Below, piece by piece: positions 3,219 through 26,564 of a stretch of 27,005 bases of DNA. The first letter of the stretch is position 1, and each line of letters starts with the position of its first letter. The stretch spans positions 1 to 27,005 of the IMG/VR virus record IMGVR_UViG_3300037484_000265; one strand, given 5' to 3'. The position numbers and the translations under genes are program-made. Source of the stretch: a virus (Duplodnaviria > Caudoviricetes). Under the pieces are notes generated by a model. It was not told where the DNA came from and made no database searches. It saw only the letters and a list, made by a program, of their open reading frames with translations.

Positions 3219-3778
3219 AGTTTACTACTGAAGATATTAACCCCAGTGTTTTCACCTGTGAGGAAAATTCCCCGGCTAAATTTACTTCCGAGTTTAACGC
3301 CGGTTATGAAGAAGTAAAAATAGGTTCTCAGGTCTGGATGCTCAGGAATTGGCACGTTGGCGGCTGGGTTCCTTCCGAGACTCACCGGGATATTTATGGA
3401 TCGTTTTATTCTCATGCTCAGGCAAAAGCTCTTTACGTACCCGGCTATCATCTTCCGTTAAATGCGGACTGGAACACGCTTATTAATTATCTTGGTGGGA
3501 CCGACTTTGCCGGAGAACACTTAAAAGAAGCGGGGCTGGCTCACTGGCTCACTCCTAACTTTGCTGATAATTCAAGCGGGTTCACGGCACTTGGATCAGG
3601 AACAGCGAATAATAACAACAGGTTTAATTTTAATTCAAGTTCAAGTTTCTGGTCAGCGGATGAGATTGCCCCCGGATGGCCGTATTACGTTCATCTGAAT
3701 CATGGTTTAGTAACTGCTGACTTATTATTTACGGCAGCAGGACTTCATCAGTTTTGTGTTCGATTAATAAAAGATTGA
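3215..3778 (+). CDS. FISUMP (Fibrobacter succinogenes major paralogous) domain protein, C-type-lectin-like fold
   Basis: VKIGSQVWM..N, YG.FY, GYHLP..DW.TL..YLGG, AG.HLKE.G..HW, NSSGFTAL, FWS, VRLIKD. GTG start overlaps the upstream TGA. Confidence 0.85.
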   Translation: MKFTTEDINPSVFTCEENSPAKFTSEFNAGYEEVKIGSQVWMLRNWHVGGWVPSETHRDIYGSFYSHAQAKALYVPGYHLPLNADWNTLINYLGGTDFAGEHLKEAGLAHWLTPNFADNSSGFTALGSGTANNNNRFNFNSSSSFWSADEIAPGWPYYVHLNHGLVTADLLFTAAGLHQFCVRLIKD

Positions 3779-11490: not shown

Positions 11491-11939
11491 TTCTCATAGT
11501 TTAAATTTAGACCTAAATATATTGCTGGTTCCCATCTTAAAATGTCGGTACTTACCGCAAAGGCGAACCCCTTTATCCTGACCGCTAATCCCATCTCGAA
11601 GGAAAGCGGGTTAAATATCTTAGAATCAACGGTTGCCCCTTCCAATTTCGCCGATCCGATATGATGATAATTCAGCCCGGCAGTTAAATTAAACTGGTTT
11701 CCGTTGTAATCCGGCAGGGGCGGCATGATTCCGACAGTAGCCTTAATATGGTTGCGGACATCATTGCATTTGTAAACCCCGCCGTTGCCATAGCTCAGTG
11801 AGTTATAAACCCGGAGTCCTTTGACCGTATAGTCACAGCGAACCCCTAGCCCAAAGTCTGCGGGCTGGAATGATCCGTAAATAACCTGAGCCTGAAGTGT
11901 GGCCGGAAGTAAAAGTAAAAACATTAATAGTGGTTTCAT
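11487..11939 (-). CDS. Exported protein, probable small outer-membrane beta-barrel
   Basis: Signal peptide (LQA-Q), amphipathic strands (FGLGVRCDY, FNLTAGLNY, FEMGLAV), C-terminal IYLGLNLNY. Confidence 0.55.
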   Translation of the reverse strand: MKPLLMFLLLLPATLQAQVIYGSFQPADFGLGVRCDYTVKGLRVYNSLSYGNGGVYKCNDVRNHIKATVGIMPPLPDYNGNQFNLTAGLNYHHIGSAKLEGATVDSKIFNPLSFEMGLAVRIKGFAFAVSTDILRWEPAIYLGLNLNYEK

Positions 11940-12556
11940 TGTTTAAAATTTAATGTCTGCTGCATCTTATGAATCTCAAATCTCTTAACCGCTGCATTAT
12001 AGTACTCTTTGTCGATCTCACAGATAACCATTTCAGCTATTCCGAAGTCGTATCCCGCAATAGCCAGACTCATTGATCCGCCGTGAGTGTCAATGATCTT
12101 ATCAGTTGGTTTGGCATAGTTCTTTAGGAGCCATTTATAGAGTTGCACAGGCTTTTGAGTGGGATGGATTCTGTTAAATGTTTCACTTCGTTTTTTATAC
12201 TGTTTTAAGACTCTATCAAAACTTGTCCAAATCAATTCTCCATCACCATAATCGCCTCCTAATTCCTTTTGCCAATAAAGCCAACCTCTTGAAATTGGTA
12301 TTTTGTCAGTAAAATAATTTCCTCCAAAAATGATTTGATTCTTACTTATTCTTTTAAGTTCATTAAAATATTCTGCAGACGGTGGTTTATTATCCCAGTT
12401 TTTCTTTTTACCATTTGTTTTATTACTGCCCCGTGTTCTGCATTTTCCCCCATCTTCACCTATCCCATACGGTGGATCAACAATAGCCAGATCAAAGTAT
12501 TTATCCGGTATGTCCTTCATGTATTTAAGACAATCGATATTGAGCAAAGTGATCAT
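11936..12556 (-). CDS. DNA amino-methyltransferase (N6-A/N4-C, beta class)
   Basis: DLAIVDPPY (motif IV), HPTQKP, IIDTHGGSMS (motif I variant), CEID..YY. Confidence 0.9.
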   Translation of the reverse strand: MITLLNIDCLKYMKDIPDKYFDLAIVDPPYGIGEDGGKCRTRGSNKTNGKKKNWDNKPPSAEYFNELKRISKNQIIFGGNYFTDKIPISRGWLYWQKELGGDYGDGELIWTSFDRVLKQYKKRSETFNRIHPTQKPVQLYKWLLKNYAKPTDKIIDTHGGSMSLAIAGYDFGIAEMVICEIDKEYYNAAVKRFEIHKMQQTLNFKQ

Positions 12557-12723: not shown

Positions 12724-12932
12724 TGTTCGTTTGTAATATAAATCCTCAGTGCATCTTCACGCTGATCATCGGTCAGAAACTTTCTGATCTCAAACCATCC
12801 TAGCCACAGCGACCATTTATAAATCAGGTGAAATGCTGCGGGCTGCTTTGTCGGGTTGCCTTTGATGAACGCTAGTGTAAAACTATGTTCCGGCCAGTAA
12901 ACAAACTGATAAAGGTCAAAGTATTTTTTCAT
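12720..12932 (-). CDS. Hypothetical protein
   Basis: 70 aa, aromatic-rich, overlaps neighbours in the operon. Confidence 0.65.
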   Translation of the reverse strand: MKKYFDLYQFVYWPEHSFTLAFIKGNPTKQPAAFHLIYKWSLWLGWFEIRKFLTDDQREDALRIYITNEQ

Positions 12933-13785
12933 ATTGTTCTATTGCTTTAAATATTTCATAAGCTATTTGCGGGACTATTGCATTTCCGAGTGCTTTAATT
13001 CTGTCCACCCTATTGGAAATCCCATCATTTCTTCCACAAAGAGGGGACTGAGCTGGCCAAATTCCGGCTTTGCATATAAATTGTGTATTTTCACATTCAA
13101 ATCTGTTTCGGGGTTTATTCTGTGATGATTCTTCGATCTTGGGGATCTGTAATCCCGTGCTTTGGGTGTTGGTAACAAATTGTGAAACTGCATCCAGTTT
13201 ATCATATTGAACTGTCTTGAATTGTCCCCGTATTTTCTGCTCATTAATGGCAGTCCTTCGGTTTTTAATTTGATTACTTTCTCCGTTTTGTCTGGAGACT
13301 GCATTGATTGAGGTATAGGCAATAATCCAAAGTCTGTCCCTTCTATGTCTTGCGCCAACGGATACAGCTGGAATAATAAATTGTTCCGTTGTGTAGCCTT
13401 CACCTTCCAAATCAGCAATAATATTGTCGAGTTCCATGTCAATGATTCCAGGAACATTTTCGCCAACGACATAGGACGGTTTAATTTCCCGTATAACCCT
13501 AAGATATTCCGGCCAGAGGTGGCGGTCATCTGCCTTGCCTTTTCGCTTCCCGGCAACGGAAAAAGGTTGGCAAGGGAATCCACCTGTAAGGATGTCGATA
13601 AGTCCTCTGTACTTTGTCCCGTCAAATTCTTTAATGTCTCCATATCTTTTAACATTTGGAAAATTCTTCTCTAATACTTTCGTGCAGAACTTGTCAATCT
13701 CGACTTGAAAAATATTCTCCCATCCCATCCATTCAGCCGCCAAATCAAAACCACCAATGCCGGAAAAAAGTGAACCATGATTCAT
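12916..13785 (-). CDS. DNA cytosine-5 methyltransferase (motifs I-VIII and X)
   Basis: LFSGIGG (I), GGFPCQPFS (IV), ENV (VI), HRRDRLW (VIII), RIKALGNAIVP (X). No motif IX in this frame. Confidence 0.92.
   Translation of the reverse strand: MNHGSLFSGIGGFDLAAEWMGWENIFQVEIDKFCTKVLEKNFPNVKRYGDIKEFDGTKYRGLIDILTGGFPCQPFSVAGKRKGKADDRHLWPEYLRVIREIKPSYVVGENVPGIIDMELDNIIADLEGEGYTTEQFIIPAVSVGARHRRDRLWIIAYTSINAVSRQNGESNQIKNRRTAINEQKIRGQFKTVQYDKLDAVSQFVTNTQSTGLQIPKIEESSQNKPRNRFECENTQFICKAGIWPAQSPLCGRNDGISNRVDRIKALGNAIVPQIAYEIFKAIEQYEKIL
12975..13655 (-). CDS. Nested +1-frame ORF, putative beta subunit of the C5 methyltransferase (possible start ATG 13529)
   Basis: 226 codons open wholly inside the MTase gene. 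LLPIP/LLPTP..RD TRD-like motifs and motif IX-like LSPLFVEEMMGFPIGWT. Confidence 0.65.
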   Translation of the reverse strand: MLKDMETLKNLTGQSTEDLSTSLQVDSLANLFPLPGSEKARQMTATSGRNILGLYGKLNRPMSLAKMFLESLTWNSTILLLIWKVKATQRNNLLFQLYPLAQDIEGTDFGLLPIPQSMQSPDKTEKVIKLKTEGLPLMSRKYGDNSRQFNMINWMQFHNLLPTPKARDYRSPRSKNHHRINPETDLNVKIHNLYAKPEFGQLSPLFVEEMMGFPIGWTELKHSEMQ

Positions 13786-15258: not shown

Positions 15259-15687
15259 TTATTTTATAGCCTTTTTAAGTTGATTGATTATCTGAGGAAT
15301 AGCATTTGAATGAAATGAATATCTACTAGTACCATTATTAGAATGTTCATCAAAAATACATGTATTAGGATATGTAAGAATTATGAACCTTTTCCCTTGT
15401 TCATTCTTAAATTTAAGTGTAGATATATCGTTAAAATTAACGGAAGATAAGTAAATACCGGGACTATTGTTGCTGATAGATAAATGGCAATCTTCACAAA
15501 TGGTAACGAGTTGAGAATTCTTATATCCCCACGGAGTATTGCCGTTTATATATTCTTTGTGGTGTACGTGAAGCGGAGTATCTTTGTCTCCGCAAAGTTT
15601 ACAGGTAAATTTATCTCGCTTCATAATCTGAAGCCGTTTTTTCTGCCAGCGTGGGTCTTTAAGAAGATCAGAATAAGTTTTACTCAT
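15259..15687 (-). CDS. HNH endonuclease
   Basis: LKDPRWQKKR..I..RD.F.C..CG, LHVHH..Y, L.TICEDCH. Confidence 0.85.
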   Translation of the reverse strand: MSKTYSDLLKDPRWQKKRLQIMKRDKFTCKLCGDKDTPLHVHHKEYINGNTPWGYKNSQLVTICEDCHLSISNNSPGIYLSSVNFNDISTLKFKNEQGKRFIILTYPNTCIFDEHSNNGTSRYSFHSNAIPQIINQLKKAIK

Positions 15688-22445: not shown

Positions 22446-22600
22446 AGTTGTATATTTAATTGAATTTTCAACGATGCAATTTCGCCCTCAACTTTGCTGA
22501 TCAGTTCCATTTCACTTGGTGGAATACGACCTAAATTAAACCAGTACAATTTTATCAGTTCATCATACTTGTCTATCAATTCCTTTGTTAGCTTATCCAT
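22442..22600 (-). CDS. Small coiled-coil protein (52 aa)
   Basis: MDKLTKELIDKYDELIKLY...VEGEIASLKIQLNIQL. ATGA overlap. Confidence 0.65.
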   Translation of the reverse strand: MDKLTKELIDKYDELIKLYWFNLGRIPPSEMELISKVEGEIASLKIQLNIQL

Positions 22601-22611
22601 TTACCTGTAAG

Positions 22612-22710
22612 TTAGTAAATAAATACTGCATAAATAATGATTGTGAGCCAGAGAATGAACGCGAGCTCTACAACATAGTGTAAATTCTGAATCTTTAAAA
22701 TCTTTTTCAT
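22612..22710 (-). CDS. Single-TM microprotein (32 aa)
   Basis: MKKILKIQNLHYVVELAFILWLTIIIYAVFIY, preceded by AAAAGCGACAAAAC motif. Confidence 0.55.
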   Translation of the reverse strand: MKKILKIQNLHYVVELAFILWLTIIIYAVFIY

Positions 22711-22723
22711 CGTTTTGTCGCTT

Positions 22724-22912
22724 TTAGTTTAATTCAACATCTTCCCCTTTTATTAAAGTATCAATAATTTCTGATGCTTCAGCTATTGATAGCCTTTTCA
22801 TAATCTGACTATTGTTATGAATAGTCGAAAATCCATTAAATGATCTCATCAATTCGATTTGTTTGTAGGTACACGGAACTGATGTTTTCTGAAATTTCAA
22901 TATTGTTTTCAT
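22724..22912 (-). CDS. Hypothetical protein, first gene of leftward operon
   Basis: 62 aa with T.KQ...LS..EAS.IID.L pattern, directly downstream of a promoter. Confidence 0.7.
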   Translation of the reverse strand: MKTILKFQKTSVPCTYKQIELMRSFNGFSTIHNNSQIMKRLSIAEASEIIDTLIKGEDVELN

Positions 22913-22933
22913 TTTGTCGCTTTTAATTCATGG

Positions 22934-22964
22934 TAAAGATAAGCATTATTTTAATATCTGCAAA
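22934..22964 (-). promoter_or_regulatory. Leftward (early) Bacteroidota-type promoter
   Basis: TTTG (22964-22961), 19-nt spacer, TATCTTTA (22941-22934), one mismatch to TAnnTTTG. Confidence 0.7.
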
Positions 22965-23020
22965 CATTTAGGTAAATAATTACAGGGAAAGTGTTATTTA
23001 TATCTGTTATTAATAAGCAA

Positions 23021-23052
23021 TTTCTTGTTATCCGGAATAAAGCATACCTTTG
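23021..23052 (+). promoter_or_regulatory. Rightward promoter of packaging/late operon
   Basis: TACCTTTG (23045-23052) is a perfect -7 element 17 nt before ATG 23070; -33 is weak. Confidence 0.65.
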
Positions 23053-23069
23053 AAGTCTAATTCCCCGCC

Positions 23070-23603
23070 ATGCAGCAGATAGTCATCCCGCTTTCAAAGC
23101 TCCAGGTTAACGCAGGTCAGGTGAAAGGGCTGCCGAAAAACCCCCGCCTGATCAAGGATGAGCGTTACCACAGGCTTTTGCAGTCAATAAAAGATGATCC
23201 CGAAATGCTCGAACTCCGTGAGTTGATCGTTTTTCCTCAGAACGGTTCTTTCGTTATCATTGCCGGTAACATGCGCTTCCGTGTCCTGAAGGAACTCAAC
23301 TACAAAGAAGCACCCTGTAAGATACTTGATGCCAAAACGCCGGTTGAAAAGCTCAAAGCGTACACTATAAAGGATAATGTTTCCTTCGGGGAGAACTCAT
23401 GGGATGACCTTGCAAACGAGTGGGATCAGGATCAGCTAATTGAATGGGGGGTGGAGATACCTGACTTTGCCTTTAAACAGGAGGCAACTGAAGACGATTA
23501 TGAGATACCTGATGAGATTGAAACGGATATTATTCTGGGCGACTTGTTTGAGATTGGAAATTATATCTATTGCCCTAAATGTAAGAAAAAACATTATGTA
23601 TGA
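23070..23603 (+). CDS. ParB/Srx N-terminal domain protein, N-terminal half of split ParB-MTase
   Basis: PKNPR.I...L..SI...P.ML..R, IIAGNMR, IKDN...GE..W..L...W, then linker EDDY...IILGDLFEIG, then YIYCPKCKKKHYV-stop. Confidence 0.88.
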   Translation: MQQIVIPLSKLQVNAGQVKGLPKNPRLIKDERYHRLLQSIKDDPEMLELRELIVFPQNGSFVIIAGNMRFRVLKELNYKEAPCKILDAKTPVEKLKAYTIKDNVSFGENSWDDLANEWDQDQLIEWGVEIPDFAFKQEATEDDYEIPDEIETDIILGDLFEIGNYIYCPKCKKKHYV

Positions 23604-24208
23604 TTTGTAAGGTTTGTCATATAGAATTTAAAGAAACTCATTTTAATCAAAAATGCTGTTCTGATGAATGCAAACATCAGGCAAAAAGAAATACACAGGA
23701 TAAATATAAAAAGAGCGAGAAGGGTAAATCTTCATATCAAAGATGGTGTAAGAATCCAGTAAAAAAAGAGATAGATAAAAAATATATGCAGACTGAAAAG
23801 GCAAAGAAGAAAGCAGTAATCAGATCAACACGGGCATTAAAAAATAATCAATCACTACAAGAAAAAAAGCGAATTAGAGATAGGTTATTTGCAAAAACGG
23901 AATACGGTAGGGAATTAAATAATAATGCAAAAAGAAAATATGCACATACAGAGAAGGGGAGAACAATCATGCTTCAATGTAAATATAGAAGACGTAATTA
24001 TTCGGCTGGAAAGTTTGACATGGAGGCATGGAAAGAAAAACTTGAATCACTACATTACAAATGTCAGATGTGTGGAACTGACGAAAGAATAACCATTGAT
24101 CATATCATCCCATTATCAAAAGGAGGCACAAATCATATTGATAATTTACAACCACTTTGCCATAGTTGTAATTCATCAAAGAACAATAAATTAATGGTAG
24201 CAGTATGA
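23600..24208 (+). CDS. HNH (putative homing) endonuclease with N-terminal zinc finger
   Basis: CKVC...CCSDEC, then CQMCG...TIDHIIPLSKGG.N...NLQPLCHSCN..K. A-rich, with ATGA overlaps at both ends. Confidence 0.9.
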   Translation: MICKVCHIEFKETHFNQKCCSDECKHQAKRNTQDKYKKSEKGKSSYQRWCKNPVKKEIDKKYMQTEKAKKKAVIRSTRALKNNQSLQEKKRIRDRLFAKTEYGRELNNNAKRKYAHTEKGRTIMLQCKYRRRNYSAGKFDMEAWKEKLESLHYKCQMCGTDERITIDHIIPLSKGGTNHIDNLQPLCHSCNSSKNNKLMVAV

Positions 24209-25017
24209 AATTGAAATGCGAATGCGGTCATATTATTGAATATACTGAAAAAGATGTTATTTCTGGACATCGGTTGTTATGCGGGGATTCAACGGATTCG
24301 GATAGTGTGGCGAAGTTGATGAATGGACAGAAAGCAGATATAACATTTACTTCACCACCATATAACGCAGGGAATAACAGATTAGGTGGAAATAAGAACA
24401 AAACTGAATCAAAGTACGCTAATAGCAAAGATGATGATGTTGAACAATGGTTTGATCTTGTTTGTGCTTCATCCGGACTTGCAATACAACACTCAATATT
24501 TGCATTTATAAATGTTCAACAACTCGCAAACAACAAATTTCGATTCATTGACTATTTGCATTTTGTTAAAGAATGGTTTGTTGATGAAATGATTTGGTAT
24601 AAAGGCGAAGGGAATCCCGCATTAGCTCCGGGAGTTTTAAATAGCAGATTTGAGAAGATAATTATTTTAAAGAACGAAGCATTTCCATCAAGGGCAATCA
24701 ATACAGTAAAATTCAGAGGAACAATATCAAACGTATATCAAGGCGGTCAACAAACAAAAAACGAATATTCGCAGCATCACGCAGCAACATTCCCCGTTCA
24801 TCTTCCCGCACATTTCATAAATTCATTTACAATGCAATCTGTCTTGGATTTATTCATGGGAACAGGAACGACAATGGTAGCTGCAAATCAATTAAATCGG
24901 AAGTGTTACGGTATGGAGATTGACCCGAAATATTGTCAGGTAATAATTGATCGCATGAGAAAACTTGATCCTGAGATTGTGATTAAAAAGAATGGAGTGG
25001 TAATTGACAAAATCTGA
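24205..25017 (+). CDS. DNA amino-methyltransferase (beta class), C-terminal half of split ParB-MTase
   Basis: MKLKCECGH extension, then HRLLCGDST, TSPPY (IV), HAATFP, VLDLFMGTGTT (I), GMEIDPKYC.VI..R. Confidence 0.9.
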   Translation: MKLKCECGHIIEYTEKDVISGHRLLCGDSTDSDSVAKLMNGQKADITFTSPPYNAGNNRLGGNKNKTESKYANSKDDDVEQWFDLVCASSGLAIQHSIFAFINVQQLANNKFRFIDYLHFVKEWFVDEMIWYKGEGNPALAPGVLNSRFEKIIILKNEAFPSRAINTVKFRGTISNVYQGGQQTKNEYSQHHAATFPVHLPAHFINSFTMQSVLDLFMGTGTTMVAANQLNRKCYGMEIDPKYCQVIIDRMRKLDPEIVIKKNGVVIDKI

Positions 25018-25396
25018 CACTATAAAAAAGAAAGCAATGATCGAGGCGTTAGTCGATGCCTTGGGAATCGTTACCCTTGCCTGTAAGAAAGTCGGAATAG
25101 CAAGACAAACGCATTACGAATGGTATAAGACAGATGAGAATTACAAACAGGCTGTCGATGACGTTCTGGATGTTGCTCTCGACTTTGCTGAATCCATGTT
25201 ACATCAACGGATACAGGATAAGGATACTATCGCAATACTATTCTACCTGAAGACTAAAGGCAAGCGGCGGGGATATATCGAGCGGCAGGAATTTGATCAC
25301 TCCGGCATCCCGCAATCCCTGAACATCATTGTCGATAAGTCAGAGACCGCAGAGACTTTAAAGAAGCTCAAAAATGGAACCGGCAAAGTTGACTAA
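25004..25396 (+). CDS. terS: Terminase small subunit (HTH type)
   Basis: ACKKVGIARQTHYEW...D..Y, AES.L...I, AILFYLKTKG..RGY.ER. Overlaps terL; TTG start. Confidence 0.8.
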   Translation: MTKSDTIKKKAMIEALVDALGIVTLACKKVGIARQTHYEWYKTDENYKQAVDDVLDVALDFAESMLHQRIQDKDTIAILFYLKTKGKRRGYIERQEFDHSGIPQSLNIIVDKSETAETLKKLKNGTGKVD

Positions 25397-26564
25397 TGTA
25401 TTTCATCGAACCGGTGAGGCTCTTATCGCTGCTCTAAATGGAACCGGCCCCAGGCTGATTGTCAATGAGGGAGGACAAGGAAGTTCAAAGACGATCAGCA
25501 CAATTCAAGTCATTTACAACTGCCTGAAAGGGAGTGACCACAATCTGAAAACAACCTTTTGCAGCTATGCACTTCCGCATCTAAAACTCGGTGTTATCGC
25601 TGACTTTGATAATATCATTCTTCCGTCTTTTGGTGAAAATGTCGCGGCGATCAAATCAAATCCCGCACAACCGGCCTATCATATTAACAAGTCAGAGATC
25701 AACTGTTATGGTGTCGAGGGTAATATTGCAATGGCGCACGGTCCCCGCAGAGATATACTTTTCATCAATGAAATAAACCGGAAAATCACTTATGAGGTTT
25801 TCGATCATCTGTTTTCCAGGTCCCGGATAACGCTGGTCGATTATAACCCTGACTGTGAATTCTTTCTCCATGAGAAGGTCCTTCCGTTCATTCCTCACGT
25901 GAAGATCAACTCAACATTTTTGGATAATCCCTATCTACCGGCCGGGGAGTATAATAATATCCTGATGAAAAAGGATAACCCGAAGTTCGCCAACTGGTGG
26001 CGGGTTTACGGATTAGGACTGCTCGGTAAGTTCGAGGGTGCTATATTTCAGGACTGGCGTTACCTTCGTGCTGACGAACAGTGGCCCGATTACCTTCCTT
26101 ATGGCTTCGGTCTTGACTTCGGATTCTCTGACCCGGACGCACTTGTTAAGACGGCCATAGACACGAAGGCTAAAAAGATGTACTGGGACGAAAAGATATA
26201 TAAATCAGGTAACACGTTTCAGGATCTGAAAAACTTATTAACAGTTTATTGTCCACGCTCAGATCAGATCATTGCCGATTGTGCCGATGCCCGAATGATA
26301 GCGCAACTGAGGCCGTTTTTTAACATTAAGCCTGTTGATAAAAAGAAATGGACCATACCTGAGGCTTTGAAAATGATGCAGGACTATGAGCATATCATCA
26401 CGCCGGAAAGCGTCAACCTGTCAAAGGAATTCAGTAATTACGTTTGGTCTGATAAAAAAGCCGGTATTCCTATTGACGGCTTCTCGCATCTTATTGACGG
26501 CGGCCGTTACCGGTTCATGGAGACTATCACACACCCCAGAAGTCACCAGCAATGGCACGGATAA
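25374..26564 (+). CDS. terL: Terminase large subunit (PBSX/SPP1-like)
   Basis: Walker A GGQGSSKT, Walker B LFINE, DYNP, STFLDNPYL, nuclease GLDFG..DP and HLIDGGRY. Confidence 0.93.
   Translation: MEPAKLTNVFHRTGEALIAALNGTGPRLIVNEGGQGSSKTISTIQVIYNCLKGSDHNLKTTFCSYALPHLKLGVIADFDNIILPSFGENVAAIKSNPAQPAYHINKSEINCYGVEGNIAMAHGPRRDILFINEINRKITYEVFDHLFSRSRITLVDYNPDCEFFLHEKVLPFIPHVKINSTFLDNPYLPAGEYNNILMKKDNPKFANWWRVYGLGLLGKFEGAIFQDWRYLRADEQWPDYLPYGFGLDFGFSDPDALVKTAIDTKAKKMYWDEKIYKSGNTFQDLKNLLTVYCPRSDQIIADCADARMIAQLRPFFNIKPVDKKKWTIPEALKMMQDYEHIITPESVNLSKEFSNYVWSDKKAGIPIDGFSHLIDGGRYRFMETITHPRSHQQWHG

Follow-up and report, generated by a model that had tools for sequence, protein, structure and literature searches.

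A gene for a ParB-methyltransferase fusion protein in a tailed-phage genome (Duplodnaviria; Caudoviricetes) is split by a mobile nuclease cassette, and the short peptide tails that the cassette leaves on the two halves probably form a zinc-bridged split finger, to judge from their sequences. The window, by which we mean the whole stretch of DNA analysed, is a linear virus record of 27,005 bases (IMG/VR record IMGVR_UViG_3300037484_000265, positions 1 to 27,005), in which the split gene lies upstream of the terminase genes (Table 1). The split ParB-methylase cassette is real, widespread and mobile; what its tails do is the subject of the argument that follows.

In the mechanism that we propose, a cassette carrying an HNH nuclease splits the ParB-methyltransferase and leaves one conserved tail on the ParB half (N-half) and one on the methylase half (C-half). 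The tails would refold in trans around one zinc ion, tethering the two halves to each other without splicing; of the ligands, two would be the cysteines of the N-half tail, and the C-half tail would give its first Cys and either its second Cys or its His. The cassette itself may have arisen when a circle bearing a nuclease and a finger repeat recombined into a host gene in mid-repeat, a crossover that would leave the finger halves in reversed order. Refolding should then bring the broken host ends together, because each would be attached to a finger residue formerly bonded to the one that carries the other. The HNH nuclease would nick empty alleles near their CGD codons, and the cassette would spread by homing. 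We entertain more tentatively, and would not bet on, a wider reading that makes the cassette the equivalent of a split intein, portable and non-covalent. Its circularly permuted zinc finger would land in a surface turn, hold the ends at peptide-bond distance through a shared zinc ion, offer a safe berth to any nuclease, and later allow one ParB hub to swap methylase heads of different chemistry or specificity.

The split gene and its insert

Intact homologs carry the host motif as one contiguous stretch, GDLFEIG-x-HRLLCGDS, with no intervening sequence, and 116 of the best 120 N-side profile matches (of 272) are uninterrupted and tail-free, the other four being tailed and ending in a stop. Contigs assembled from sediment DNA, in 4/4 runs at 80% likeness, join position 23557/23558 to 24274 through codons for G-Q/E-H-R; they are empty alleles of related phages, not splice products. 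Because intact homologs and contigs alike read G-x-H, the Asn codon at 23559-61 belongs to the host and the insert spans 23562-24267. The original prediction had placed an insertion of about 0.7 kb at this motif; its size was right (706 nt), and alignment to uninterrupted homologs, which fixes the insertion point, moves its start one codon downstream of the position claimed. The tails are supplied by the inserted element, as had been supposed, given the tail-free state of the 116 intact matches. The described order of ParB, HNH and methyltransferase open reading frames (ORFs), with cysteine tails and with ATGA overlaps at both junctions, is borne out by ORF positions, Pfam and PHROGs, and the flanks of the HNH ORF within the insert, 38 and 59 nt, agree with the 40 and 60 nt or so that had been estimated. 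The halves are also out of frame, as stated, with an insert of 1 mod 3 and a stop at 23601-23603.

Pfam matches the nuclease (HNH, E 1e-13), the methylase (N6_N4_Mtase, E 2e-25) and, weakly, the ParB domain (ParB_N, E 0.005), and the ParB and methyltransferase identities are backed by PHROGs. The window HNH protein consists of an N-terminal Cys/His cluster, a long basic middle and an intact HNH core (H168, N182, N191).

Table 1. Features of the split gene and its surroundings in the window.
Feature	Position	Strand	Basis or detail
ParB half (N-half): ParB-like domain, acidic linker, host strand GDLFEIGN and insert-derived tail	23070..23603	+	ORF, Pfam, PHROGs
Inserted cassette	23562..24267	+	706 nt; G+C content 0.31, against 0.46 in the ParB host part
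N-half C-terminal tail, 13 aa, CxxC knuckle and His	23562..23603	+	Cys codons 23571, 23580; His 23592
HNH endonuclease, 202 aa; putative homing nuclease of the cassette	23600..24208	+	Pfam, PHROGs
C-half N-terminal tail, 21 aa, CxCGH knuckle and EY.E.D[VI]	24205..24267	+	Cys codons 24217, 24223; His 24229
Whole methylase half (C-half): tail, then HRLLCGDS at 24268	24205..25017	+	ORF
Beta-class N6/N4 DNA methyltransferase catalytic domain (HRLLCGDS, SPPY, F.G.G)	24268..25017	+	Pfam
Terminase small subunit-like gene (context)	25004..25396	+	PHROGs
Terminase large subunit (context)	25374..26564	+	Pfam, PHROGs

A recurrent and mobile pair of tails

Viral, metagenome and genome contigs, searched by DNA pattern and by protein, yielded 23 distinct loci (labelled L below) with the C-half tail. 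Every one of the 19 with enough upstream DNA also has the N-half tail (19/19), the other four being cut short, and this pairing is not chance. Between the tails of those 19 loci lies a member of the window HNH family in 12, another nuclease in three (a NUMOD3-HNH protein in L098, a short HNH in L132 and a Vsr/DUF559-like protein in L134) and nothing in four (L103, L124, L127 and L129), where the halves are joined by an ATGA overlap (spacer -4 nt); spacers overall range from -4 to 912 nt. The tails are kept despite loss (4) or replacement (3) of the nuclease among the 19 loci, as expected of a nuclease-split gene. Among the C-side protein matches (873), the best 120 include 119 that start with the tail and continue as methylase. 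No single chain with both tails was found among these 120 or among the best 120 of 272 N-side matches, both searches having used profiles that included host residues, so that a rare fused form could escape the best 120; nor did the same C-side matches include an HNH-free homolog with the zinc ribbon in one chain, the case that the original prediction had named as fatal to it.

The assembly labels of records with tailed methylases include Clostridia, Saccharibacteria and Sedimentisphaerales bins, as labels and not as shown hosts. Tblastn against cultured phages and plasmids gave no match over a Cys tail among the best 25 of 56, 15 of 22, 15 of 53, 15 of 148 and 8 of 8. Hosts other than ParB-methylases were not found either, the sole search free of host residues being a 20-position tail profile with 18 matches and low power. 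Counts leave out the DNA-pattern matches judged to be chance (L102, L108, L110, L112, L113, L115, L118, L128, L130, L131, L133, L139, L142, L143, L145, L150, L151 and L155). At two of these loci both knuckle types occur together in a small single-chain protein, in opposite orders: L142 (1926-2114), with a weak CSL zinc-ribbon match (E 2e-4), and L128 (1845-2117), with no match.

The tail codons vary synonymously (pS 0.93/0.75 for synonymous against pN 0.27/0.28 for nonsynonymous differences) and, because it is the third codon positions that vary, selection acts on the tail peptide. C, C and H are kept in 18/18 distinct N-half tails, most of them located through the C-half pattern; the Cys and His positions belonged to the search patterns, which makes invariance on the searched side partly a matter of construction. 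The ligand set of 119 C-halves is CxC..H in 107, CxN..H in 8 and CxxC..H in 2, with His lost in 2, and the second Cys and the His are never both lost. Hydrophobic and acidic tail positions (F/I, EY, D-I/V) are also well conserved. In L167, which has the window HNH family at the same site as the window (site 1), the tails of both halves are Cys-free, and the C-half tail is still in register with the profile (7.8 bits, against a maximum of 3.1 in 40,583 control windows). This joint loss suggests that the tails work together. The earlier claim of one Cys pair per fragment holds for the strict co-occurrence across the 19 loci and fails in L167.

Some of the loci hold further ORFs. In L167, an extra ORF of 138 aa (2103-2519) with a weak double-zinc-ribbon match follows the HNH gene inside the Cys-free cassette. 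L103 has a third short ORF (3474-3674) that starts with a C-half-like tail and has no methylase behind it, possibly a decoy or a dock for another partner. In L137 (reverse strand, 1989-2811 of the reversed locus) a second, different nuclease-like ORF, with Cys-free short ends, breaks up the tailed C-half once more near site 2, described below.

Host trees built after removal of the tails (quick LG+G4) do not group the tailed genes. The ParB tree rejects a single tailed clade (17 vs 51 rows, approximately unbiased test p 5e-17) and nests the window gene with six intact genes at 100; the methyltransferase tree rejects it as well (26 vs 64 rows, p 4e-81), with 11 changes forced by its starred branches. 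The 20-aa flanks of the window insert are 20/20 and 20/20 identical to intact alleles, and its left flank is at most 10/20 identical to those of other tailed loci. The same tails also occur at a second site (site 2), about 20 residues downstream, in L105 and L132, with the host residues divided in a complementary way. These comparisons support the view that the tails travel, as a pair and with the nuclease, into different host lineages.

The nuclease itself keeps its core: across the cassettes of its family identity is 44-58%, and H168, N182, N191 and four core Cys are invariant in 12/12. Full-length relatives in a viral scan lie in a cassette in five cases of six; 18 of 80 HNH-relative loci were examined, L166 and L168-L170 being contigs already counted and the rest mostly HNH-core matches. 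In 10 of 13 cassettes with the window HNH family, a 15-nt copy of the host L-M/I-C-G-D codons is fused to the -10 box before the nuclease gene, each copy scoring above the control maximum of its own locus, and in L149 and L159 the -35 and -10 boxes at the copy are perfect. It is absent from the window, L141, L167 and six tested cassettes without this HNH family. I-TevI represses itself through a target-like operator (PMC2988022, in the accessible part of the report), and by analogy the HNH protein may repress itself through the target-like copy, with the CGD codons as its binding site; the alternative is that the copy is a relic duplication. L134, immediately behind the N-half stop, shows a separate near-consensus -35/-10 promoter for the Vsr-like nuclease gene and no target-like copy.

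A proposed zinc clip weighed against other readings

A search of 1.84 billion representatives with the 20-position profile of the tail alone found 18 matches, namely 14 tailed methylases and four repeat proteins. Three of the repeat proteins were examined: two are arrays of DUF4379 (PF14311, a probable treble-clef zinc finger) and one is a UPF0547 protein, and the single outlier among the 120 C-side matches is also DUF4379. By our own reading one DUF4379 array ends in a Vsr-like nuclease domain, for which Pfam lists no match. In the arrays P0243 and P0247, 10/12 repeats contain a stretch resembling the C-half tail and, directly behind it at gap 0, one resembling the N-half tail, and the reverse order scores negative. 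The C-half tail matches the first half of a DUF4379-type repeat and the N-half tail the second, so that the tails look like two halves of one such repeat, in reversed order around the nuclease. Among other likenesses, the CxC and CxxC of acetone carboxylase gamma form a 4-Cys zinc site (PMC5543143, from the accessible text), and the match of the tails to it is weak (E 1.4); a best score of 0.81 for the C-half tail in the ESM Atlas is a lead only and was not used.

What a clip would join can be gauged from an AlphaFold2 model of an intact homolog (104 rows, mean predicted local distance difference test score, pLDDT, 90); a single-sequence model of the C-half (pLDDT 32) was discarded. The model resembles M.BceJIV (Z 22.0, root-mean-square deviation 2.8, 213 aligned), CcrM, MboIIA and PvuII, and its fold, with a catalytic SPPY/DPPY before F.G.G, is that of the beta-class N6/N4 methylases. 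Two strands of the model are joined by a two-residue beta-turn, and site 1 is at its tip; site 2 belongs to the loop that leads into the catalytic strand. The original prediction was correct that a contiguous motif is interrupted, and it overstated the damage, the turn lying at the N-terminal edge of the catalytic domain. Solved stand-alone beta-class methylases begin at model residues 17-23, residue 1 of M1.HpyAVI corresponding to model residue 23. Since the window C-half is nearly a whole enzyme, the clip may tether ParB rather than rescue catalysis. With a split at site 2, DPPY is separated from the CGDS strand and the helix after it, which both go to the N-half, and assembly should be needed there because the CGDS Asp, which we take to contact the methyl donor, lies on the N-half.

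Would the tails need metal at all? They might pair as a small beta-sheet domain through strand complementation and hydrophobic packing, with zinc as an optional stabiliser. The Cys-free tails of L167, with the C-half member still in profile register, fit such a domain, as does the good conservation of the F/I, EY and D-I/V positions; the near-constant C-half ligand set (CxC..H in 107/119), the rule that second Cys and His are never both lost, and the intact C, C and H of all 18 N-half tails, most of them found via the other tail, do not, and we regard it as unlikely. A further reading treats the split as by now an adaptation of the phage: the tails would serve as a docking code for mounting alternative methylase heads on one ParB hub, with the nucleases as passengers. 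Here the four nuclease-free loci are telling: all 4/4 consist of one ParB half and two tailed methylase halves, which are 39-42% identical and carry SPPY in one and DPPY in the other. A different tail pair at site 1 likewise precedes 2-3 tandem C-halves without a nuclease (L024, L050 and L075), and three other nucleases can occupy the gap. Yet a second tailed C-half appears in 0/15 nuclease-bearing Cys-tailed loci, within the DNA examined; one HNH family accompanies the tails over distant lineages (44-58% identity) with its operator-like target copy; and it is an insertion event that explains the reversed order of the finger halves. As a rival to the zinc clip this reading seems to us quite unlikely, but it is compatible with it as a later stage, and the tandem alternative C-halves of both tail types suggest later use of the tails as a docking code.

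The second tail pair at site 1 is found in L024 (92-2629), L050 (1764-4081), L068 (1-1159) and L075 (2352-4378), in no case with a nuclease. All four Cys, as a complete ribbon, are here at the end of the N-half, and a short basic strand opens each of the 1-3 tandem methylase halves. The one long match for this tail type (P0121, on one contig) has one Cys pair only and looks like the product of an insertion or deletion; we set it aside.

That the two halves simply work apart is improbable in our judgement. The C-half would then be a stand-alone methylase, and the tails would serve otherwise, as a homodimer hook or in stability or translational coupling. The start of the C-half does coincide with the starts of solved stand-alone methylases, and in the accessible account of the split Aeh1 ribonucleotide reductase the tails are dispensable for heterodimer formation (PMC3045599). 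Separate function sits badly with the 19/19 co-occurrence, the joint Cys loss in L167, the zero-gap fit of the tails into one repeat, and site 2, at which DPPY is on another half than the CGDS strand and the helix that follows. Restoration of one chain by RNA splicing, protein trans-splicing, frameshifting or ribosomal bypassing we consider scarcely credible. A GGA codon does flank the window insert on both sides, as in the bypassing of T4 gene 60 described in the accessible text of bioRxiv 10.1101/2022.08.31.505936; other loci do not share this match, and the first GGA is not followed by a stop. Against any of these routes the third codon positions vary freely. The absence of intron and intein, as originally claimed, is upheld by the searches: Rfam gives no intron match to E 5 over 22500-25500, no match to a Hint domain appears, and the ends are not those of an intein (His-Asn followed by Cys, Ser or Thr).

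Specific known elements were rejected on similar grounds. A group I or II intron is at odds, besides the Rfam result, with flanks of 38 and 59 nt and with the four loci that have no spacer at all (-4 nt). A split intein does not fit tails that are 13 and 21 aa long and either run into a stop or are followed by His. The MobA element proper is excluded by a host that is not Topo2L, by the lack of a stop after the first GGA and by the unconserved codon match, and a hidden HNH of the ShiLan type by the stop at 23601-23603 that closes the methylase frame and by an insert of 1 mod 3.

Several observations weigh against the zinc clip or against parts of its history. L167 indicates that metal is dispensable in at least one lineage, and what is minimally needed may be the fold and not the metal; the Cys-free case is one locus. 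The evidence from repeats comes from two or three proteins whose repeats are not independent, and bare C-half tails, queried in Pfam at 20 aa, lead weakly to a CSL zinc ribbon (6/16, best E 0.003) and not to DUF4379, the PF14311 link coming from the reverse search with the tail profile. The window C-half, nearly complete as modelled, may work alone, and Aeh1 halves bind each other without needing their tails, in the part of that report cited above. As to mobility, close matches are favoured among the intact comparison genes, for which the window's own proteins served as queries, and domain swapping, common in such genes, could add to the scatter in the trees. One of the six full-length HNH relatives (L171) is not in a split methylase, and the window itself lacks the operator-like copy. 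Finally, the host part of the methylase is AT-rich too (G+C content 0.365; at third codon positions 0.31, against 0.54 for ParB), and the methylase may have arrived with the cassette or separately.

Elsewhere in the window, a C5 cytosine methylase gene (12916-13785, minus strand), whose Pfam match is limited to residues 2-221, is overlapped by an open second frame of 226 aa (12975-13655, minus strand). The end of this frame resembles what we take to be the late motifs of C5 methylases, and the pair is possibly a two-chain enzyme encoded in overlapping frames. With a further N6/N4 methylase at 11936-12556 (minus strand) the genome has three methylase loci, and a second, weak HNH match lies at 15259-15687 (minus strand).

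Relation to known systems

Rescue of a split protein by tails and without splicing belongs to a kind already described for MobA and MobE. The prediction that the insertion is made harmless without splicing is consistent with the lack of splicing signs; what is new here is the apparent permuted-finger origin of the tails. The accessible literature leaves open where the rescuing tails of MobA and MobE come from and how they are built, calling the sequences unique and the molecular details unresolved. The MobA system of T4-like phages (bioRxiv 10.1101/2022.08.31.505936, accessible sections) is the closest likeness: a host gene is interrupted by an HNH cassette, which gives the two products conserved C- and N-terminal extensions; these outlast loss of the nuclease or its replacement by a VSR-like one, and the distribution of the element is patchy. 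It differs in its topoisomerase host, in its tails of ~44 aa, called unique, and in its bypass cassette; it has a single insertion region, one clade is re-fused, and those sections mention neither zinc nor cysteine nor methyltransferase. The window family, in contrast, has tails of 13-21 aa that appear to be halves of a finger repeat, two sites, no bypass, no fused form found and tandem alternative C-halves. In Aeh1 nrdA-a/mobE/nrdA-b (Crona et al., PMC3045599), rescue is also free of splicing and due to insert-derived tails, which are experimentally essential; these differ in being oppositely charged and without database matches, and zinc is unmentioned in the text available. Its authors expected tails to depend on the host, whereas in the split ParB-methylases one tail family recurs widely.

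Fractured split-intein genes (Dassa et al., PMC2677866, as far as accessible) likewise consist of two gene halves around a free-standing nuclease, Vsr-like ones included, and comprise one intein-less SbcD-like case with tails of 25 and 9 residues. They differ in that their products are ligated by protein trans-splicing, whereas the split ParB-methylase is without intein motifs; methyltransferase and ParB are not mentioned in the portion available. The ShiLan domain (Arsenault, Gosselin and Gogarten, PMC11855218) also brings an actively homing HNH into a phage DNA methylase, and no splicing is known for it; its HNH lies concealed in another frame and leaves that of the methylase open, while the window host is two ORFs with stops, and the accessible text speaks of neither ParB nor a split. 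In DUF4379 (PF14311), a C-x-x-G-H..F/EY....[VI]KS part is directly followed by a W-C-P-K-C part, a spacing that the tails match at gap 0; its repeats form tandem arrays in one chain, unlike the tails, which are cut, reversed in gene order and fused to a foreign enzyme. The zinc clasp of CD4/CD8 with Lck (PMC12198760, accessible text) offers a heterodimeric tetrahedral zinc site to which one protein contributes CxC and its partner a hairpin Cys pair, as an analogy only, with no homology and no origin in a mobile element.

We found no prior description, in the open-licence literature, of metal-bound permuted-finger tails or of tandem alternative methylase halves. Against this background, the tails are traced to a recognisable zinc-finger repeat, whose reversed order would explain both the origin of the cassette and its fit to the broken host ends. 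At ~34 residues the tail pair would, if the zinc-clip reading is true, be a natural heterodimeric metal clip of very small size. The loci that have two different methylase halves and no nuclease suggest a path from the scar of a parasite to a combinatorial DNA-modification system beside the terminase.

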